DNA of 64,000 bases, taken from the NCBI RefSeq assembly GCF_036321535.1, contig NC_087436.1:64544001-64608000 (forward strand), given 5' to 3'. Every line of letters starts with the position of its first letter. Position 1 is the stretch's first letter. This DNA comes from Camelus dromedarius. Taxonomy: Eukaryota. Of this stretch, positions 35,597 through 48,152 are shown piece after piece. A model generated the notes under the pieces. The model saw only the letters and a list, made by a program, of their open reading frames with translations. It was not told the origin of the DNA and did no database searches. Made by a program: the position numbers and the translations under genes.

Positions 35597-36685
35597 TTTG
35601 TTTTTTTTGTTTTTTTTTTTTTTTAATTAAAGTACAGTCAATGACAATGCATCAGTTTCTGGTGTACAGCACAATGTCCCAGCCATGCATATATACACAG
35701 ATATTCATTTTTATATTCTTTTTCATTAAAGGTTATTACAAGATATTGAATATAGTTCCCTGTGCTATACAGAGGAAACTTTTAAAAAATGTATTTATAT
35801 ATTTGTAGTGGCTAACATTTGCAACTCTCAAACTCCCAAATGTATCCCTTCCCACCCCCTTTCCCTGGTAACCATAAGATTTTTTACTATGTCTGGGAGT
35901 CTATTCCTGTTCTGTAGATGACATCATTAGTGTTGCCTTTTTTTCTTTTTTTTAGATTCCACATATGAGTGATATCATATGGTATTTTTCTTTCTCTTTC
36001 TGGCTTACTTCACTTAGAATGACAATCTCCATGTCCATCTATGTTGCTGCAAGTGACATTATTTTATTCTTTTTTATGGCCAAGTAGTATTCCATTGTAT
36101 AGATATACCACAGCTTCTTTATCCAGTCCTCTGTCAATGGACATTTAGGTTGTTTCCATGTCTTGGCTATTGTTAACAGTGCTGCTAAGAACACTGGGGT
36201 GCGTGTTTCTTTTTGAATTAAAATTCCCCCTGGATATATGCCCAGGAGTGGGATTGCTGTATCTTAGGGTAAGTCTATTTTTAGTCTTTTGAGGAATCTC
36301 CATAATGGCTGCACCAAACTACATTCCCACCAACAGTGTAGGAGGGTTCCCTTTTCTCCACATCCTCTCCAGCATTTACCATTCACAGACTTTCAAATGA
36401 TGGCCATTCTGACTGGTGTGAGGTGGTACTTCATTGTAGTTTTGGTTTACATTTCTCTGATAATTAGTGATATTGAGCATTTTTTCATGTGCCTGTTGAT
36501 CATTTGTATTTCTTCCTTGGAGAATTGCTTGTTTAGGTCTTCCTCTCATCTTTGGCTTGGGTTGTTTGTTTTTTCTTTTTAAGTTGTATGAGCTGTTTAT
36601 ATATTCTGGGAATTAAGCCTTTGTCAATCACATCATTTGCAAATATTTTCTCCCATTCCATAGGTTGTCATTTTGTTTTGCTTAT
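35597..36685 (-). mobile_element. Young 5'-truncated L1 (ORF2 end plus 3' UTR)
   Basis: Poly-T head on the plus strand, then the same 3' UTR/ORF2 sequence as the copies at 11.2-11.7 kb and 47.4-48.1 kb. Confidence 0.93.
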
Positions 36686-38879
36686 AAACTAATACTTTGT
36701 TGACTAGGAAATTTTCTACTTTACTTAGTGCTTAGGCATCAATCATTCTCAGTAATTCCAATCCCACATCTTTTAGAAAGGTGCGGTAAAGTGGATATTT
36801 ATGTCGGTATCAGCATACAGACAGATACAGACATCCATACACATGAAATTACTTTATTTTCAAACATTATTTAACACATCTTACAAATATATCACATTAG
36901 TGGTGGAGGAATGTAGATTTTTTATAACTTCAGAGCTGTAATTTATTATTGGCAACAAAAGGCAAAAAAACCTCACAGTCATCATGAGGGCACAGTTTGA
37001 AGTGATTGAAATCACACAAGCATTGCTTTATAAACATTGATTTTTGAGTGACATATTTTCAGAAAAGACTGATTTTTAAAGGATATTTAATTATGCTCTA
37101 ATAAGTGTCTGGAATGAAATACTATATTGCAGTTATCCATGTAAAGGTTTGGTCAGCATTGGTTCTTCTGAATGTCTAGCTTTGTAAGAGAGCAACAGGG
37201 AAAGCAGCTTTAAATGAACTCTTGTGGCATATATTTTATATGAGTAGTAGTTAGGTTGTCATCAAAACCTTGGTAATAGTCTCGATGTATTTAAGTGAAA
37301 GATGGTTGACACTAAGCTGTTATAGGAACAGATTATCTGTGTAGCTTATCCTTGGAAATTGCTACTGTATTAAAGGTCTTAGTTTTAAAAACATAATAAT
37401 CCATTTATATCTTCCTTTCAAATCAGTTTACTTATGAATGACTCCCATGTATTCACTCTAATTTACCAAAAGATTGGCATGAAATAATGGAAATTGATCT
37501 ATAAAAATAACTTTTCTAAACCAATAACGATTTCCTCACTGAATTCAAGCTCCTGATCAGAACAGGAAGGCTAACCAACTACTTTTCCCCTCAATGCAAA
37601 AGGCCTTTCATGAGCCTTAGTAAATATTGGCACGTCCAACTTAAAATCCTAGTTCTTACCTATCTTACATTTGATTTGAACATTTTAAAGCCCTGAAGTA
37701 TCAAATACTTAATGTTAAACAGAGCTCACCAGAAAGCCAAGCTTTTAGATGTTATTGTGACAGTCACTTACTGCCTAAAACACATGCAGAAACTATAGTC
37801 ATGTTGCTTTAGAAGGTCAGAATTCTGATCTACTGTTCCTTTTTATTTTTGGTTAGAATAACATTATACTGCTGAGGCAACAAAAAGCTAAGGTCACCAG
37901 CAGAAACTGGAGCAAATAATGGAATTTTCAAGCAAGATTCTTTTGAATCTGGTGTTGAACTGACTGAGGAGAAAAAAAATGTTAGGTTTACTGAACTGAG
38001 AAAGTTCTGTGCATAGTGCCCCAAAGAGACATAAAAGGAACAGCTTGGAAAAAACTGGTAGAATTTTAAAGCTGTTGAACTAAAATTCAATAATTAGAAG
38101 CATAGTATATGTCTCATTTAATTGTATTTTGTTGTTTTGTTTGGCCAACATACACTTATCACTTATTTGGTACTTTGATGCAAATATCTAAATAATGATG
38201 CAGAACCTAGTGATTTTTAGCCTGTTAGGATAAAATGTAGAAAGTATTATTTGTGTATGAATGTTTGTAATTTTCTAAATAGTTTACTTATGTCTCATTG
38301 AGGTTGGTTTAAACTAAGAATAAACTATGAAATAAAATTTTAGTCTAGAATAGAATGAATATTTTAGATGATAAATTTGAACCATCCTAGGTAAGGGGAA
38401 ACAGAATTTAAGAAGCAGTTTCTTCAGGGCCTTGGTGTAACTCTCTTGTACCCTATTCTCACTTCACTTAAGATGCAGATTCCTGGGGAGTCTAGCTGGC
38501 GTAACTTGATTCACAGACTCACTCAGAACCAGAGAAGAGCAGGGCATCTTGAGTGGCATATTACAAGTTTATGGACATAGGCTGGAAAGTTTCTCAAAGC
38601 AAAATTGAGATGTTTTCCCAAGCAGAGGGAGTGACAGCCAGGGAAGCAAAAACAATAAATATTCAATGCAGAAAGCAAAGTGGAAATTTGTTTTTATTAG
38701 TCTTGCTAATGTTGGATAGTTTTTTTTTTGTTTTTTTTTTTTTTTACTGATTTGACATTTTTGCACTTCACCTAACAGATAGATTGCCAATATTCTTGAA
38801 ACACACACACACTCTTTATTTCATACCAAAAATCAATCTAAAAACACTTCTTCCCTTTCCTTCTCCCCCTTGCCTACTT

Positions 38880-39105
38880 CACGGTTTCTCACCCTTCACA
38901 CTTTGGGCAGGTGCCCGTTTGGTATTTTGACATCTGGGGCAGGATAATTCTGTCGTGGGGGTCTGTCTTGTGCAGTGTGGGATGTTGAGCAGCATGCCTT
39001 CTCTCTGTTGACTGGATATCATCCCTCTTAGTTGTTACAATCAAAACTGTCTAGATGTTGCCAAATGTCTTCTAGAGGACACATCATCCCCATGCAGACC
39101 TACTG
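38880..39105. mobile_element. MER20-like DNA transposon
   Basis: TTGACATCTGGGGCAGGATAATTC...TGTGGGATGTTGAGCAGCAT...TTGCCAAATGTC. Confidence 0.75.
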
Positions 39106-40379
39106 AACTCCTAGACTATATTTGAGGAAAAAAAATCTTTTTTCTAATGAAAATAAATAATAAATCTGCTAATACATTTTAGCTATTTAAAATAATTCAC
39201 ATAGAGGAAGATTATCCAATATACTAATACATTTATTTTTGTAATGGTTGTTTCTTGATGTGATTCCTTTTATTCTGTCACATTATGGATAGTATGGACC
39301 ATTATTTTTATAGTCAGTTTTCTCTGGACCTAAGCATTATCTGAGAGAGATATTTGATTGACTAATAACTGTATCTGTTAGCAGTTAGCAATTCCCTCCC
39401 CCCACAAAGCTACTTAAAAACAACAGCAGCAGCAATTCTAAATCTCAGATCTCAGTAGCTTCAAAAAATTATTAGGCTTTTACCTTCCACCAACATGGAA
39501 CCAGTAGCACTGTACTTGAGACAGGATTTTTAAGATACGATGTGTATCTGGAAGGCTGTTGTGCAGCATTTCAATCTACCAAAATAACCAACTAGTTTGT
39601 AATCAATACATTACATTAAATAAGGATTGAGTCCAGTCATAAAACAGCTTTTTTCTCATCCTCCCGTGTTTCTTCCCTGCCCTTATAGCTCCCTTCGCCC
39701 CACAATCATCGTTTCAGTCCTAAGAAGAATCCAATTTTTGAAATTCCCTATGATAGGAAAATTTCCAAACTTCATTGACAGTAAAATTTCACACTTTCCC
39801 TCTCCTCATTGCTCTAAGTGGAAAGCTTGCCGTGCGAAGTGGATGCCAAGCCTGCTTCCTCTCCATTTCCCCACCTGATGCTTCCCCTTGTCTTCTGTGG
39901 GCTGGAATGCCTGTAGCTCCTAAATGGTTCAGCATTGGAGGTGAAGAGGGGACGACAGATAAGGCACAGGAAAGGTCTTATGTGACAGGTTTTAATGGAG
40001 TAAAGAATAAATTCTCCTCTGGAAGATGGATAAAGATGAATCTCTGTCTTGGGCAGATTTTTAAAAACTGAAAAGTCCCATTGAGAAATATCTGACTGTA
40101 TTTCATGTGAAAACAAATGATGCATGTTCTCCCAGCTGGATGACTGCTTACATTTCCTCCTTGTACCCCTGGAAATTCAGTTGTATACCTCTTCTGCTGA
40201 TATAATTTTTCACCTCTAAAAAGTCACCTTGGACTTCCAGACCTCACACTGTCTCTGAGAAACTTACACAGCCTTGCTTTCATCTTTAGAGTAGAACTGT
40301 AGCTAACACCCTATGCATCTTGATCTTTCTTCCTCTGCTTTTTCCCCAAACTCCAGGGCGTATATATTAACCCTCCCAT

Positions 40380-40831
40380 TGTTATGGAAACGACAGGCCA
40401 GTCAAGAAACAAGCACCACTCGGAGGGTTGGAGTACTCAGATGTATTACGCCGGCGGGCTCAGAGGGGCTTCTGCTCCGAAGCTCTGAGCACCTTCAAGA
40501 CGTGCACATGAGGTTTTATAGGGTAAAGTACAAGCATGGGGTATTCGGCCAATAGGCATGGAACAGCTTTAGCAGCATTATCATCACAAAAGTGGAGGCG
40601 GGGAGGCAGCAAACCAACATTCCAAAGCCAGATATGTATCTTTGAGAATCCAGCTGGCTAGCAAAAAACATAAACAGCAAACCAACACTAATTAACTTAG
40701 ATTTACAACTTAGTCCAGCAGAACTCAGATTGGTATTCCAATACTTAGACTTGTTAGCCCAGCCCAGCCTCTCCTTCACATTCCTAGACCTGTGAGTTAT
40801 CTTGTTAGACCAGCCCAGCTTTTCCTTCACA
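40380..40831 (-). repeat. 3' LTR of the provirus
   Basis: Same length as the 5' LTR, with 10 substitutions and no indels by manual alignment. Preceded by the PPT. Confidence 0.97.
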
Positions 40832-40843
40832 TTCCCCCCTCTT
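40832..40843 (-). promoter_or_regulatory. Polypurine tract
   Basis: Minus strand AAGAGGGGGGAA directly abuts the TG of the 3' LTR. Confidence 0.95.
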
Positions 40844-40858
40844 GGTGCTTTCACAACT

Positions 40859-41449
40859 CTAGTTGGAGTAAGCATCATCACTTATCTGTTGCAGGGGCTC
40901 ATAATTGGAGGCTAACATCTGAAGTTATATAACCTCTATCCACTCACTGACCAAGCGGGTCCAGAAGTTTAGGACACAGGGCCCAAATAGCAGAACTGCA
41001 AAAAATCAAGAGTAAGGGACCTATGAACGGTGCCAGCCAGGAGGTCCAGCCCCAGGGGCCTGTCCATGGGCTCTTATTTAAAATATGTTTTCTCTTTTTA
41101 CTCGGTCTTGTAACTCTTGAACCATCTCTCTGACAATTTCTGATTGATTGGCATAAAAACAGCACTCTTCATTGTAGGAAGAGGCATAGTCCCCCCTCTT
41201 TGGCCATGAGTAAGTTACAGACCCCTCCTGTTTTGTAAAACCACCTCGGCCAGAGAGTCAATCTGATTTTGCAGAGTTCCCAGGGTTTCTGCTATTTGTT
41301 GGAGATCATGGCTGAATTCACTTGTAAGCTGGAAATACAGGTTGGTACATGGACCATTTGTCACCCGGTTCTGTGCAGGTGCATTGTACAGCCAAGGAGA
41401 GTGAGGGCATTAGCGTCAGTAACATCAGCCTTATGATTATCTTAGACAT
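40859..41449 (-). pseudogene. env: ERV env: signal peptide plus TM subunit, SU deleted
   Basis: MSKIIIRLMLLTLMPSLSLA-VQCTC leader, then a jump near 41348 to TM. TM has the heptad repeat and ISD (LQNQIDSLAEVVLQNRRGL), CX6CC (CLFLQ/EECCFYANQS) and the membrane anchor WLAPFIGPLLLI...FGPC. Several frameshifts. Confidence 0.93.
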
Positions 41450-41613
41450 GATGCTGCAGTGATGGCACTAATTATAACAAGATATAAAATAGCTATCAGG
41501 ATTCTATGGCCTATGTTCCAGTTAGGTGTGGCGGCGCTAGCTAGCCCCACTGCTAATACGCAGGCTAGTATGGCAAACAAGGAAATAGGCAAGGGAGCAC
41601 AAAAGAAATACAT
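41437..41613 (-). CDS. Small intact ORF (58 aa) with two hydrophobic segments between pol and env; putative accessory membrane protein
   Basis: MYFFCAPLPISLFAILACVLAVGLASAATPNWNIGHRILIAILYLVIISAITAASCLR*. It is shorter than any ORF in the provided track. It starts 23 nt after the pol stop and overlaps the env ATG. Confidence 0.5.
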   Translation of the reverse strand: MYFFCAPLPISLFAILACVLAVGLASAATPNWNIGHRILIAILYLVIISAITAASCLR

Positions 41614-41636
41614 TTAACAGCTGCGTTGAGCTTTCC

Positions 41637-41894
41637 TCAAGCTTCGGCCGTGTGTTGACTAGCCAGCTTCTGGATGTGGCTAGAGCAGGGCTTGTCGATC
41701 CTTTTCTGGTCCCTCTTGATCTTGATCTTGAGCGGGTCTCCCGGGACACACTCAATTTTCCAGGGACCCTCTGTCTGAGGTGAAGTCGCTCTCTTAACCC
41801 TGGAGTGGTGGATCCAAGGGATGACTCCTGCAACTTTAACAGCGGTAGGGGTGGTTAATACCACTAAATATGGTCCCTTACAGTGAATAATGGC
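41637..41894 (-). pseudogene. pol: ERV integrase C-terminal (GPY/F) fragment
   Basis: KGPYLVVLTTPTAVKVAGVIPWIHHSRVKRA...DPLKIKI, fused directly to the protease fragment. Confidence 0.92.
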
Positions 41895-42132
41895 ATGTGT
41901 CACTAGATGGCCCCCTACTCGACAGGATTGTGGTTGGCAGAAATGGCGGGCAGTTGAGTCCCCAGTAGCCCCTATAATAGTCGCCTTTTTCTTGGTCAGG
42001 GGGGCTACAGGTTTGGTCACCACAGACAGAATACTCTGCTCCTGGGTCTACCATAAAAGTCATTGGTTGGCCCCCTATAAACATTTTGACCTTGGGCTCC
42101 CGGGGGCCCAGGGGCAGGGACCGCGGTCTCTC
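41895..42132 (-). pseudogene. pro: ERV protease, N-terminal part
   Basis: In frame after the gag amber codon: EPKVKMFIGGQPMTFMVDPGAEYSV (active site DTG is DPG here). After a frameshift it reads VTKPVAPLTKKKATIIGATG...VGGHLVTH. Confidence 0.92.
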
Positions 42133-43896
42133 CTATTCTGAGTCGACTCCAGCCAGTCCGATGTGATTACTGGCTGGTGGCTCCAGCTGATAAGTAGGCC
42201 TTTTGAGGGGTGCTCTCTTTCCATCCTTTCTGTTTGGGCACTCGTTCTTCCAGTGTCCTGTCTCCCAGCAGTATGCGCACTGGTCTCGGCCCAGGGGCAT
42301 CCGTGGTTGGGGTCCCCTCTTCCGGGGTGGTGCAGGATTCTGGCTGAAGCTTGTTTTTCCCAGGGCTGCTGAAAGGAGTGCGGCTTTCTGCTTCATTCTC
42401 TGGTCTGCTTCTCGTTGGGCTTCCCGTTCTCGGTTTACAAAAACTTTGCTACTTCCAGCAGCTGTGTAGCGTTCATCCCTGCGAATCCATCCAGTTTTTG
42501 GAGTTTCTGGCGTATATCTGGGTGTGATTGGGCTACGAAGGCAGCGTTGACCATCCGCTGGTTTTCTTGGGCCTCAGAATCAAAAGGAGTGTAGACTTGG
42601 AATGCTTCACATAGTCTCTCATAGAAGTCAGTGGGGGTCTCGTCTGGCCTCTGGGTCACCATGGTCGTTTTAGACATGTTAGTTGGCTTCTTGGCTCCTG
42701 CTCTTAGCCCTTGTAGGATGGCTTCCTGGTACTCACACAGCACTTCTCTTCCTTCTTGGGTGTTAAAGTCCCAATCTGGTCTGGTGTCAGGGGCATGTGT
42801 CATGGCCCACCCCTCAACATCCATTGTGTCCCCAGGGGCTCGGCCCTGCAGCCATTTTCGTGCTTCAGTGAGAATGCATCTCCTCTCCTCTGTATTGAAA
42901 AGAGTCAAAAGCACCTGGAGGACATCCTCCCAGGTGGGCTGGTGAGAATGGAAGATAGACTCTACGAGGTAAATCATAGCCTGCGGCTTGACAGCCTGAT
43001 TACAGTCGTCACCACCAAGTAGAAATCATCGTGGGCTGGACAGAGACCAAATATTTGTATGACTTTGCAGCAGAGCCCAAGGCTGTCCCAGCATCGCTTC
43101 AGGACTGGGCAGGGGCCGGCGCTCCCCGACAGTTGCCATGGAGGCGGCGGCGGCTGAGGTGGAGGCGGTGCCGGGGCTGCGGGGGCTGCTGCTGCTGCTG
43201 TTGCTGGGCGGCTTTTCAGAGTAGGAAGGAGTATGATGGCACCAATTAAGAAGGGCTGTAGTGCTAAAGGATTGGTAGCAGAGTACGGGGTGCCCGGGCC
43301 GAACAGTCCCGTTTTCCCCAACTTGTTGCAGCCCTTGTGTCTCCTGCAGCGGCATTTGGAGGGCCGGTGGTGCTGGCTTCCCGGCTTGTGCTGAGCGGAG
43401 TCTCCTTCCTACCGGCTCAGGCTGGGGGCTGGGCTCTGCCTCTGGGTCCTCAGGCTGGGGAGGTGTTGGTGCCCCGGGGGCATACGGAGGGGGTAGACAT
43501 ATCTGTCTTCTGCATCTCCATGGAAAATAGGCTTTTTTCTCTCTGTCTTTTTGGCCTGGACTGGCTGGGCTGCTAATATCTTGCATTGTCCAGGTCCATT
43601 GGAGCAGAACCGAATCCATGGGGTAGAGTCTGGGCGATATTTAGCCAGGAGTCAATGTAAGGGAATTGATCTGGGTGGCCTGGGGTTCCAGTGATTATTT
43701 GATAGACTGCTCACACTGTTGCTAGGTCCAGAGTTCCTCCTGAGGGCCACTAGACTCCAAAGGCCGGCCATTCAAGCTCACACAAAGTGCGGAGCCTGCC
43801 AGGGGTCATTCAAATTCCACAGTCTCTTGAGAACCCCTTTTTGAAATTCTTAATCATGCAGTCTAGAGTGGTGGGTTTCGACTTAGAGCCTCCCAT
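42133..43896 (-). pseudogene. gag: ERV gag (MA-p12-CA-NC), disrupted
   Basis: MGGSKSKP myristoylation start, LCELEWPAFGV*WP matrix motif, PPPY late domain, CA HQPTWED, MHR QRPDETPTDFYERLCEAF, single CCHC knuckle [14 protein letters not shown] and an amber TAG at 42133-42135. It has 3 stops in MA, at least 3 frameshifts and a 225-nt host insert. Confidence 0.96.
42990..43207 (-). pseudogene. ATXN7: Captured fragment of host ataxin-7 mRNA inside gag
   Basis: Translates, in shifting frames, to AQQQQQQQPPQP / [33 protein letters not shown] / [23 protein letters not shown] / DCNQAVKPQA. This is colinear with the recalled ATXN7 N-terminus (polyQ...[30 protein letters not shown]...[35 protein letters not shown]). 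Confidence 0.95.
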
Positions 43897-43899
43897 TTT

Positions 43900-44380
43900 T
43901 TAGATGTTTGGGAAGGTAGCCTTTATATCTTTTCTTTCTTCACTCCTCAAAACACTGAGTTCCCAGAGAGACTGCTCTCTTGCTGGGTCTCTGAGTTGTT
44001 TGAAGGCTAATTTGGCCAGGGAGTCTGGGTTCCAGTCACAGCTGATGTCTCTGGAGCTCAAGGCCTCAAGCAGTTCCAGGGACTTTCTTCATTAAATCCT
44101 GTCTATATCCTGAACTAACATATCAGGGGCGTGGGACTGACGGCAGATGGTAAAACAAATGGACTAGTAAAGGGACCTCCAAGGCCGGGTGAGCCCGGTC
44201 CTGAAGGAATTCATCTTCTAAACTTGAGTCCTGGGGGTCTGGGGCTAGGCAAAAGGGGCACTACTTGGGTCTGTTCTGTAGGGAAACACTAAGTCTCGGG
44301 TGTTCTGTAACAGAATCAGGTAGGAGACTTTTCAAAGAAATAGCATCCTAGCCTCCGAGGGCACAGGGGCGTTGACTCAT
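43900..44380 (-). pseudogene. Decayed pre-gag ORF in the long leader
   Basis: ATG at 44380 gives MSQRPCALGG*DAISLKSLLPD...RPK*CPFCLAPDPQDSSLEDEFLQDRAHPALEVPLLVHLFYH. After a frameshift it reads DMLVQDIDRI**RKSLELLEALSSRDISCDWNPDSLAKLAFKQLRDPAREQSLWELSVLRSEERKDIKATFPNI*, ending one codon before the gag ATG. Confidence 0.5.
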
Positions 44381-45018
44381 TGGCTGTCTATGTCCTTTTC
44401 CCTCCCAGTGTGGCCACCCTGTGCCGGTGTCGCAGACAAGACAAGGGAGGGTTTTCGTTGCGTCCGCCTGGCCGCTCCCCTCGCGGGGACGAAGGTGCCT
44501 CTTAGCTTTGGCGGGTCAGTATAAGCTGCTGACTCCGATCGGGACCCTGAGGGACCGATACCGCCCTGAGCCGTATGAGGTCACCATGGAACCGCAGGTT
44601 GGGACTCACTCGAACTCCGTAGCAGAATGCCGTGGAGCTACAAACTCGAGCCTGATCGCACACTTCACAGGCCGCTCATTCACTCACACACACACACACA
44701 GAGGTTAACAACATTCTTCCCACCAATACCAATATCCTGTTTCCTGTAGGAGAGGATCAGCCTCCTCTTCTGTCCAATGGGACAGGACCTGATACCTCCC
44801 GGGGGTTCCTCCCTTGTCCGGATGGCCACCTGGTGAGTCTGTCCGTCCCTCCATGGAGTCTGGATCTGGTTGTAGCCCAGCCACCCGGGGGCCGAGTTGC
44901 TGTCATGAAAGAGAACCCGAAATACCGTCGGGCGGCGCCATCTCGTTCGCTGCCGGAATCCCGTCCCCCGGTCGGCCGGAGCCACCAGTCCGGCGGCTCA
45001 GGGGGCCGGCGTGGTTGT

Positions 45019-45036
45019 ATATCACTGGGGCCTCCA
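45019..45036 (-). promoter_or_regulatory. Primer binding site, tRNA-Thr-like
   Basis: Minus strand TGGAGGCCCCAGTGATAT, 4 nt after the 5' LTR. It matches 16/18 to the recalled complement of a tRNA-Thr 3' end (TGGAGGCCCCAGCGAGAT). Confidence 0.85.
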
Positions 45037-45040
45037 GAAA

Positions 45041-45492
45041 TGTTACGGAAACAACAGGCCAGTCAAGAAACAAGCACCACTCGGAGGGTTGGAGTACTCA
45101 GATGTATTACGCCGGCGGGCTCAGAGGGGCTTCTGCTCCGAAGCTCTGAGCACCTTCAAGATGTGCACATGAGGTTTTATAGGGTAAAGTACAAGCATGG
45201 GGTATTCGGCCAATAGGCATGGAACAGCTTTAGCAGCATTACCATCACAAAAGTGGAGGTGGGGAGACACCAAACCAACATTCCAAAGCCAGATATGTAT
45301 CTTTGAGAATCCAGCTGGCTAGCAAAAAACATAAACAGCAAACCAACACTAATTAACTTAGATTTACAAGTTAGTCCAGCAGAACTCAGATCGGTATTCC
45401 AATACTTAGACTTGTTAGCCCAGCCCAGCCTCTCCTTCACATTCCTAGACCTGTGAGTTATCTTGTTAGACCAGCTCAGCTTTTCCTTCACA
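45041..45492 (-). repeat. 5' LTR of the provirus
   Basis: Minus strand reads TGTGAAGG...CGTAACA and is followed by the PBS. TATAAAA at 45175-45181, CCAAT at 45210-45214 (plus strand), R hairpin at 45119-45151. Confidence 0.97.
45175..45181 (-). promoter_or_regulatory. LTR TATA box (second copy at 40514-40520)
   Basis: TATAAAA on the minus strand, about 25 nt upstream of the R-region hairpin. Confidence 0.8.
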
Positions 45493-47381
45493 CCATGAAT
45501 CCTTTCTCAATAGGTTTAAATGAAAGGGAAGCAATGCCACAACTCTTCAGTACCTTAAATACACTTGACGGTGGCACAGCTCACCCTTCTCACTGTAGTG
45601 TGTTCTTCATGGTCTCATCACTTGTGCAAGCTCTTACTCAAGAACATCTGCAATCTACTGACATCAGATTTGTCTGCTCTGGAGCTAGTCAGTCTGAACT
45701 TAGCGTATATGTTCTCTCCGTCAGGAGGAACTCAGATGCTATTGGTACTGGCCTAAAGCTACTTCACTCACTTCCTTCCTGTCCATAGTAAGGCTGGAAA
45801 GCACTTATATTTCAAAATGCCTCCAACCTTTCCAGTATGCCTTTTGAAACATCATAATTAAGGAACTCCCTGTACAGCCAGACTTCACTGAAGAGTCCTT
45901 CCACGTCATGGCATTAACTAAAATGCATGTCTCCCCCGAGCACACCCTCAAGCCCACTTGAGGGAAGATTATGTTCTTAGTCTGTCGTAATTCTGTTTTA
46001 GGGATTAAAGGTAGTGTCACATTGATCAACCATCCACGTGCTTGCTGAATAACAAAATTAAACAAGGCTAAAGAAGAACCTTCTGAAGCTCTTGGCATTC
46101 AAGTATATTCCCTGAGGGTCAACTATAGGCACAGTAGATATTATATACAGACTCTATAAAAATCATTTTGACTTTGTTGCAGCTTCTTTTCATTACAACA
46201 TAGAAAATTCTTGTGTACTTTGCCTTCAAATTCTATTTCCTAGATTTAAAAACATTGAGAAGGTAGTTTGATGTTAGCCAATATCTATTTTTTAACACAT
46301 ACACTAAAGAATATTTGCATTATAACTGGTTAGATTAAACCAAACAGAAACTTACTTCTAAATGTAAAATTTTTTGAGATAATCGTATCAACACCCAAAG
46401 GTAATTTAAAGAATTAAAAGGAGGAGGAAGACCATTATAAGGGGAAAGAGAGGCAGGAGGTGGAAAAGATAACTGTGTGGGAAGGTATTCAGCCAGGTGA
46501 ACTAGGAGTAGGAATTGAGAAAGGTAGTAAGGAATGAAGCCAGAGCAAATTTCACTTGGTTAGGTAGAGATCCATCTTAGGAGTCAGACTTATTTTGACT
46601 CCCTGCAGTACTTCTGAGAAGTTGCTTTTGGTAGTTACTAGCATTGCCCTTGCAATGATGCAGTACTTTTTTTTTCTTCCAAACCATTACCAAACAAATG
46701 AATTTAACTGAAGTTGATTTTAAAGAGGATCTAATGTAGTCTAAGATCAGATACTGTGTATAGACTTCAAAGTAGGACTGTAAAATCAACTTGAATTGTG
46801 CATTAATGGTATACAGAGTCTGTTCAGCAACACATTAGACTAGTAAGTTTGTCAAATGTTTACCATAAAATATGAGCAAAGAGTTTTATTTTGCTGTTTG
46901 AAGTTGTTCCACTGAGAAAGAGCAGTATCATTTTTTAAAGTTATTTGAATAACCCTTATCTTAAAGTTTTACCAAATAACTTTGGAATACTGGTAATGGA
47001 TTTTTGCCTTCATGATAAAGGTGAATTTATATACCTTTTCATCTTCATAGGAAATGTCACTTAATCAAAATGTTGCCATTGTGTGTTTTTGATGACAGTT
47101 ACTTGAACATATACCATATTCCAAAAAAGAAATAAAACTAAAATTATTTTATAAAACGGTACAGCAGAGAACCTTTTAAAATTATTTTCACATTCTAGAT
47201 GTCTTTCATAATACGCAGGTTGATATGAAATGTCAGTCTTTCATTAGGTCAGCATAATATATTACAGATTGATTTTTGTTGTTGTTAACAATTTTCTGAT
47301 TAAATATATAGGATCATAAGTGGTAATATACTTAATATAAATAAGTTATTATTTTGATGTGATAAATGCAATATTATTCTT

Positions 47382-48152
47382 TTTTTTGTCTATGTATTTT
47401 TATTGAAGTATAGTTAGTTTACAATGTTGTGTCAATTTCTGGTATATACTATAATGCTTCAGTCATACATGAACATACTTATATTAGTTTTCATATTCTT
47501 TTTCACCATAAATTACTACGAGATATGGAATATAGTTCCCTACTGCTATACAGTATGGACTTGTTATTTATCTATTTTATAGATATTAGTATCTTCAAAT
47601 CTCGAACTCCCAATTTATCCCTCCCACCCCCACTCCGTAACCATAAGTTTGTTTTCTATGTCTGTGAGTCTGTTTCTGTTTTGAAAATAAGTTCATTTGT
47701 CTTTTTTTTTTTTTTTTTTTAGATTACACATGTAAGTGATATCATATGATATTTTTCTTTCTCTTTCTGGCTTACTTCACTTAGAATGATGATCTCCAGG
47801 TCCATCCATATTGCTGCAAATGTCATTATTTTTGTCTGTTTTTATGGCTGAGTAGTATTCCATTGTATAAATATACTACAACTTCCTTATTCAGTCATCT
47901 GTTGATGGACATTTAGGTTGTTTCCATGTCTTGGCTATTGTAAATACTGCTGCTATGAACATTGGGGTGCATGTGTCTTTTTGACTTAAGTTTCCCTCTG
48001 GATATATGCCCAGGAGTGGGATTGCTGAATCATATGGTTAGTCTATTTTTAGTTTTTGAGGAATCTCCATACTGTTTCCATAATGGCTGCACCAAACTGA
48101 ATTCCCACCAGTAATGTAGGAGTGTTCCCTTTTCTCCAGATCCTCTCCAGCA
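47382..48152 (-). mobile_element. Young 5'-truncated L1
   Basis: Flanked by the perfect repeat TGATAAATGCAATATTATTCTT (47360-47381 and 48153-48174). L1 3' UTR/ORF2 sequence. Confidence 0.95.

Follow-up and report, generated by a model that had tools for sequence, protein, structure and literature searches.

The window analysed here comprises 64,000 nucleotides of the Camelus dromedarius genome (NCBI RefSeq assembly GCF_036321535.1, contig NC_087436.1, positions 64,544,001 to 64,608,000 of the forward strand), and all coordinates are those of the window. It contains an endogenous retrovirus (ERV) provirus of 5,113 bp on the minus strand, running from 45492 to 40380, whose gag gene carries a captured fragment of host ATXN7 mRNA. 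Further copies of distinct sequence carry the same ATXN7 insert and the same internal deletion. Damage to the viral genes was scored by frameshift-aware comparison with intact relatives, namely the alpaca Gag protein P0144, the ERV1 relative L001 from a metagenome assembly, and distant Env proteins. The features of the element, in window order, are as follows.

40376–40379, no strand: left target-site duplication (TSD), CCAT.
40380–40831, minus: 3' long terminal repeat (LTR), 452 bp, with TG..CA ends, TATAAA at 40520 and AATACA at 40447.
40832–40843, minus: polypurine tract (PPT), preceding the 3' LTR.
40930–41350, minus: env transmembrane (TM) remnant (TLV_coat), with four frameshifts.
About 41345–41375: env deletion junction, with most of the surface subunit (SU) and the fusion peptide lost.
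41350–41449, minus: env start, a signal-peptide-like stretch (judged by eye) and a few SU residues.
41437–41613, minus: 58-codon open reading frame (ORF), lying between integrase stop and env signal peptide and containing two hydrophobic segments.
41637–41893, minus: integrase C-terminal remnant (MLVIN_C).
41894–42132, minus: protease N-terminal remnant, with a frameshift at ~42027 and a ~3.15-kb deletion of protease, reverse transcriptase (RT), RNase H and integrase sequence at 41894/41893.
42133–42989, minus: gag capsid (CA) and nucleocapsid (NC) region (Gag_p30, zinc knuckle), with a frameshift at ~42448; 257 of 284 aligned residues identical to alpaca P0144.
42983–42989, minus: 7-nt direct repeat bordering the insert on its 3' side, in the KPQA codons, with its second copy at 43208–43214.
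42990–43214, minus: captured ATXN7 mRNA, net 225 bp, at the capsid start in gag, by protein comparison.
43215–43897, minus: gag matrix (MA), p12 and CA start, with three stops and two frameshifts; 180 of 199 aligned residues identical to P0144.
43898–45018, minus: leader, 1.1 kb, 68% identical to L001 over 44414–44622, with a putative packaging signal.
45019–45036, minus: primer-binding site (PBS), 4 nt from the 5' LTR.
45041–45492, minus: 5' LTR, 452 bp.
45493–45496, no strand: right TSD, CCAT.

The element is a class I (gamma-like) ERV both in structure (paired TG..CA LTRs, a 4-bp TSD, a PBS and a PPT) and in coding content (Gag_p30, a single CCHC knuckle, an MLV-type integrase C-terminus and a TLV_coat TM). 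Matches to Pfam are clear for Gag_p30, MLVIN_C and the TLV_coat stub and weak for the zinc knuckle and the protease stub; RT is absent through the pol deletion. We take the PBS to be of the tRNA-Thr type, with mismatches. The two LTRs differ at 10 of 452 sites (8 transitions and 2 transversions, 5 of them of the CpG-decay type) with no indels, corresponding to a Kimura two-parameter distance of 0.0225. The counts of differing sites, CpG sites and indels, re-measured here together with the CCAT on both sides, are identical to those of a preliminary description of the locus, which had also held that every cis element was kept. The PBS, the PPT, the TG..CA ends and the 1.1-kb leader are indeed present, but a motif scan found AATAAA or ATTAAA in neither LTR, with AATACA in both downstream of TATAAA. 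Because two leader stretches fold no more stably than shuffled sequences (z −0.11 and +1.18), an intact packaging signal is not demonstrated. The AATACA lies at the usual place of a poly(A) signal in both LTRs (40442–40447 and 45103–45108, minus strand). A tandem duplication of ~51 bp is present in the U3 of both LTRs (40750–40831 and 45411–45492), where length variants occur among contigs of the family.

The insert was recognised by the match of two frames of 42977–43240 to human ataxin-7 (PDB 7ktr_N; E values of 2.4e-9 and 6.8e-5). It spans, in pieces, residues ~28–157 of the 903 residues of alpaca ATXN7 (P0093), with internal deletions of ~17 codons (~43176) and ~31 codons (~43076) and small ones at ~43152 and ~43008. 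Nine of 77 aligned residues differ from P0093, one of them at the junction and omitted from the rate test described below, and the CAG tract consists of 7 glutamine codons, the same number as in alpaca ATXN7. The GTASTS variant of the insert occurs in 3 of 79 ATXN7-like proteins, one of which is that of alpaca; since the closest Gag is also from alpaca (90% identity), the source of the fragment appears to be camelid. In 8 of the 79 proteins the mRNA sequence is left directly after GLCRE for what appears to be intron, and in 5 the following exon is skipped at this place. The insert reads straight over this point, where five of its residue differences cluster, and because it crosses the splice junction so marked, it derives from a spliced mRNA. 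No poly(A) is present, the longest A run being 4.

Gag SEKPQA is continuous in P0144 and L001 and ATXN7 reads VKPQAF, such that the KPQA motif at the junction is common to both proteins. Since gag is unbroken over the insert site in P0144 and L001, no gag was lost at insertion. The 225 bp preserve the gag frame, as would happen in 1 of 3 cases by chance, and there is a stop in the gag frame at 43026. An in-frame Gag–ATXN7 fusion was considered and rejected, because only one piece is in the ATXN7 frame, an internal stop is present and MA is broken. Judged from its sequence, the ATXN7 cargo appears to be decaying and fragmented, with no sign of function.

Contigs of 4 of 24 sequencing runs, two of DNA (X1 and X6) and two of RNA (X15 and X17), were aligned to 38800–45070. 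These are contig data only, in which a feature that is not seen is not evidence for absence, and the best-matching DNA runs may include the source sample itself. Contigs passing from the flank into the LTR, each of which covers less than 31 nt of the LTR, show 1 difference in X1 and X6 and, in X15 (22 nt of LTR), 7 substitutions and 9 gap letters in ~1,025 bp. At position 43070, inside the insert, the contigs that differ from this locus number 7, 7, 5 and 1 in the four runs, and their summed depth is 470 against ~38–48 in the flank in X1 (~10–12x) and 177 against ~7–9 in X6 (~20–24x). In three of the four runs the differing contigs extend 66–70 nt both ways from 43070, across the insert-specific deletion. 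One contig of X15 (record 13, 42868–43134) crosses both this deletion and the gag junction and differs from the window by 41 substitutions in 267 positions (15%) plus 5 gap letters, compared with 10 differences in 452 positions between the LTRs (Fisher P 9e-11). With the sister copy 15% diverged and the LTRs only 2.2% apart, the capture of ATXN7 must be much older than this integration. The preliminary description had suggested that the ATXN7-bearing form may exist in multiple copies, and these contigs bear that out and place the insert and its internal deletion before this integration; they also speak against the contrary case that it had named, in which all lesions would be private to this locus.

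Other shared features were found in the same alignments. In X1, a contig that extends 106 nt to both sides of 41322 seems to span the env deletion, which thus appears to be common to other copies. As would be expected of a non-autonomous sub-family, then, copies have structural lesions in common: the insert and its internal deletion, and apparently the env deletion, although the pol deletion was not seen to be common. The window allele is at or above fourfold single-copy depth at 9 of 39 listed interior sites in both DNA runs and at 14 of 39 in either. Between 36 and 61 contigs per end leave the LTR ends into unrelated flanks in the DNA runs, and the LTR family is therefore large. Other family copies carry different indels near 43465 in p12 (43460–43570) and, where env begins (41274–41476), a skip of 201 nt, so several deletion morphs coexist. 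Transcription is not supported, because the RNA runs X15 and X17 cover the flank too and their interior-to-flank ratio is no higher than that of the DNA runs.

The viral genes are heavily damaged. Eight frameshifts were found, three in gag (~43622, 43503 and 42448), one in pro (42027) and four in env TM (41217, 41171, 41100 and 41003), together with three stops in MA (~43810, 43750 and 43711) and a 14-codon deletion in p12 at ~43464. Both 5' gag frameshifts are seen against L001 too, and seven of the eight frameshift places are also among 12 of 53 indel rows listed against family contigs. Relative to L001, ~3.15 kb of pro-pol is missing: the protease ends at 41894 (L001 2573) and the integrase resumes at 41893 (~L001 5722). 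The env gene passes from its signal-peptide-like start (41449) to the TM at ~41350, matching residue 417-445 of distant Envs, and a comparison with these Envs puts the env deletion at about 1.1–1.2 kb. The earlier count of at least seven frameshifts, several stops, two large deletions and a host insert is thus confirmed, with eight frameshifts, three MA stops, the pro-pol and env deletions and ATXN7. The 58-codon ORF at 41437–41613 has no Pfam match under E 0.2 and no Atlas match of 0.9 or more; the region is covered by family contigs and is therefore not private to the locus. Possible readings are a signal peptide left over from an env swap and a small accessory ORF for a membrane protein.

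Among 73 Gag matches, P0144, an open alpaca protein of 499 aa, is the closest, and a Bactrian camel Gag piece (P0152) is 81% identical. The predicted protein P0152 (Camelus bactrianus LOC141577848) joins a CA-NC piece of the ERV family to an immunoglobulin V domain, which suggests either that a family member lies beside a camel IGHV/VHH gene or that the gene model is an artefact. A Gag search of metagenomes returned seven loci with a best identity of at most 67%; L001 and L002 were compared, and L003–L007 are short zinc-knuckle matches. In viral contigs, none of five candidates from the Gag search was confirmed, and none of 597 pattern matches to host ATXN7 DNA in metagenome contigs was confirmed. 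L001 (1–8192) is a near-full-length ERV1 relative of 8.2 kb, ~67% identical in gag-pro, and was used as the length reference. Its env is open (690 codons) and of a different type, and its primer site is also different. Within the 64-kb window no second copy of the ERV, no Rfam match and no tRNA gene were found. On the minus strand, the 3' ends of two truncated L1 elements (35600–36700 and 47380–48150) lie on either side of the ERV at a distance and are presumably camelid by their appearance.

The age of the LTR pair is 5.0 Myr at a rate of 2.2e-9 per year, 11 Myr at an illustrative 1e-9, and 2.2 Myr (1.1–4.1) at 5e-9, the rate used in PMC8605555. The interior has changed more than the divergence of the LTRs would predict. 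On the Gag branch of this copy there are 19 polarised changes (35/481 with 21 unpolarised changes apportioned) compared with 8 expected; in the ATXN7 insert 8 of 77 residues have changed compared with 1.4–3.2 expected; and there are ~15 indel events compared with 3–10 expected at assumed indel ratios. Half or more of the damage thus probably predates this integration, although at the clock's upper bound the margin is thin. The preliminary description had placed most lesions before integration. In its favor are the insert and internal deletion found in other copies and damage above the LTR-clock expectation; on the other side, the window allele looks private at 25 of the 39 listed sites. In comparison with the family, the changes are strand-symmetric (C>T 108 and G>A 102 in X1), and APOBEC hypermutation was therefore rejected as their main cause.

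We consider it probable that a camelid class I ERV captured spliced ATXN7 mRNA by RT template switching and then spread non-autonomously in trans, and that this locus is a later integration. In such a history, the ERV would have co-packaged spliced ATXN7 mRNA, and RT would have jumped to it at the KPQA codons common to Gag and ATXN7 and copied part of the 5' coding region. A return of RT to the same gag site at a short GC-rich match would have left the 7-nt duplication and no loss of gag. Two template switches at one gag site would fit the 7-nt repeat, the unbroken gag, the common KPQA and the lack of poly(A). The chimeric provirus could then have founded a non-autonomous sub-lineage, copied several times with the Gag and Pol of intact family members, with env SU being lost and damage gathering during copying, until this locus arose as one of the later integrations. 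Template switching as the mode of capture, trans-supplied proteins as the means of spread, and repeated remobilisation are all inferred steps. The open alpaca Gag and the contigs that continue in pol are candidate helpers. The helper virus invoked in the preliminary description has possible representatives, but a helper with the same LTR was not seen and none of these is linked to this LTR.

Several observations weigh against this history. The junction microhomology is based on the protein-level KPQA and the 7-nt repeat, not on host ATXN7 nucleotides. The contig results come from 32 of ~10,900 aligned pieces and 40 of 887 difference rows, chosen by support, and the summed contig depth is no true copy number and gives the order of magnitude only. 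No listed contig bridges the pol deletion, and the listed long contigs that reach it end at 41894; one of X15 (record 12) continues past this point for 831 further, other letters. Copies of ~5.1 kb with identical lesions, as initially proposed, are accordingly unconfirmed, and the sister copy itself is not near-identical, with 41 of 267 positions different besides 5 gap letters. Of the 39 listed interior sites, 25 have the window allele near single-copy depth or lack it, and much of the damage may therefore be private. Finally, the upper bound of the LTR clock expects 19 Gag changes, at which the polarised changes have P 0.57, and with the higher indel ratio the indel excess there has P 0.10.

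A more far-reaching version of this history, which we put forward tentatively, is that of a long-lived ERV lineage that was serially remobilised, with the ATXN7 polyglutamine exon aboard as inert cargo, in several waves many millions of years apart. Later helpers would have packaged RNA transcribed anew from decayed copies, while recombination renewed gag and the LTRs. Serial remobilisation would account for a sister copy 15% diverged, LTRs 2.2% apart and a Gag ~90% like that of a young alpaca element.

A single old burst could instead be imagined, in which all ATXN7-bearing copies are ancient, most point damage accumulated in situ and whole-LTR gene conversion makes the LTRs look young. The 15% difference of the sister copy, the 25 of 39 listed sites that look private, the strand-symmetric transitions against the family, as in germline decay, and the dozens of other LTR ends as possible conversion donors would all suit it. 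We nevertheless regard it as unlikely, because the differences between the LTRs are distributed evenly, without any partial conversion tract seen (largest gap P 0.61), and the Gag here is just ~10% from the open alpaca Gag, below what the sister-copy distance implies. The X15 flank, which differs by 7 substitutions in ~1,025 bp, shows this junction too, consistent with an integration somewhat older than the flank split.

Entry of the ATXN7 piece into an integrated provirus at the DNA level, by L1-type internal priming or a cDNA-patched break repair, followed by amplification in trans, seems quite improbable. The absence of poly(A), the position of the fragment near the 5' end of the coding region of a gene of ~900 aa, the 3' copy of the repeat, which is itself ATXN7-encoded KPQA, and internal deletions that would be typical of RT slippage all speak against it. 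Nonetheless, the 7-nt duplication without target loss resembles a TSD, an A4 run on the 5' side is one mismatch from the L1 cut motif, and Drosophila template-switch retrocopies, as described in PMC5131818, replace parts of the element, unlike here. The idea of a single dead-on-arrival recombinant, with surplus depth from host ATXN7 or its processed pseudogenes, can draw on the crude depth sums and on the one copy in the 64-kb window, but is very hard to credit, because contigs distinct from the locus span both the insert-specific deletion and the junction with gag, two features absent from the host gene and ordinary retrocopies, and X15 record 13 contradicts it.

The locus matters in several ways. 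Few host mRNAs captured by mammalian ERVs have been described (3 in human and 8 in mouse in PMC5131818, with no camelid case in the part available), and this case adds onward amplification and a zero-loss insertion. The mismatch between LTR age and interior divergence calls for caution in dating a capture by the LTRs of one copy, and dispersed ATXN7 fragments could mislead mapping or polymerase chain reaction assays at camelid ATXN7. Were serial remobilisation true, the family would be a natural record of an ERV recycling its dead copies and of the behaviour of a CAG tract in many dispersed copies.

In the titles and abstract openings found, no camelid ATXN7-bearing ERV was reported; most subscription journals and Repbase/Dfam lay outside that search. 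The comparisons that follow refer to the available parts of the papers cited. LTR-mediated retroposition has been described with capture and onward spread in Drosophila and, for mouse and human, in the form of individual retrocopies (Tan et al. 2016, PMC5131818), a paper that also cites the HERV-K/FAM8A1 and mouse IAPEy cases. The present element resembles these in carrying a partial spliced host mRNA within an LTR element, with no L1 poly(A) and probably with short similarity at the junctions and non-autonomous copying. It differs in that the Drosophila inserts replace part of the element, whereas here gag is intact across the site, with zero loss and a flanking 7-nt repeat. The crocodilian elements CrocERV29, with KIT-ligand, and CrocERV31, with nectin3 (PMC4299795), are likewise multi-copy ERV lineages carrying a host mRNA (9 and 6 copies), and CrocERV29 captured KIT-ligand without loss of an ERV domain, so that replacement of part of the element is usual in capture but not obligatory. 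Unlike the ATXN7 cargo, which is fragmented, frameshifted and inside gag, the cargo ORFs of these two are under purifying selection.

The defective morphs of bovine ERVK[2-1-LTR] D-type (PMC10924933), and ETn/MusD, IAP I-delta-1 and recKoRV, which that paper cites, are also ORF-less, keep cis ends and are spread by competent relatives, but bear swapped retroelement segments and have observed mobilisation, whereas here a host mRNA is carried and mobilisation is inferred. Short, possibly non-autonomous ERV1 clusters of alpaca (PMC8605555) are similar as camelid ERV1 elements that are short and ORF-less with LTR ages of a few Myr, a likeness drawn from their description only, and no host-gene capture is described for them in the part of that paper available. 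Thus, the ERV with its ATXN7 cargo is a new example of the known process of LTR-mediated retroposition, unusual in its zero-loss junction and in the gap between the age of its LTRs and the divergence of its sister copy.

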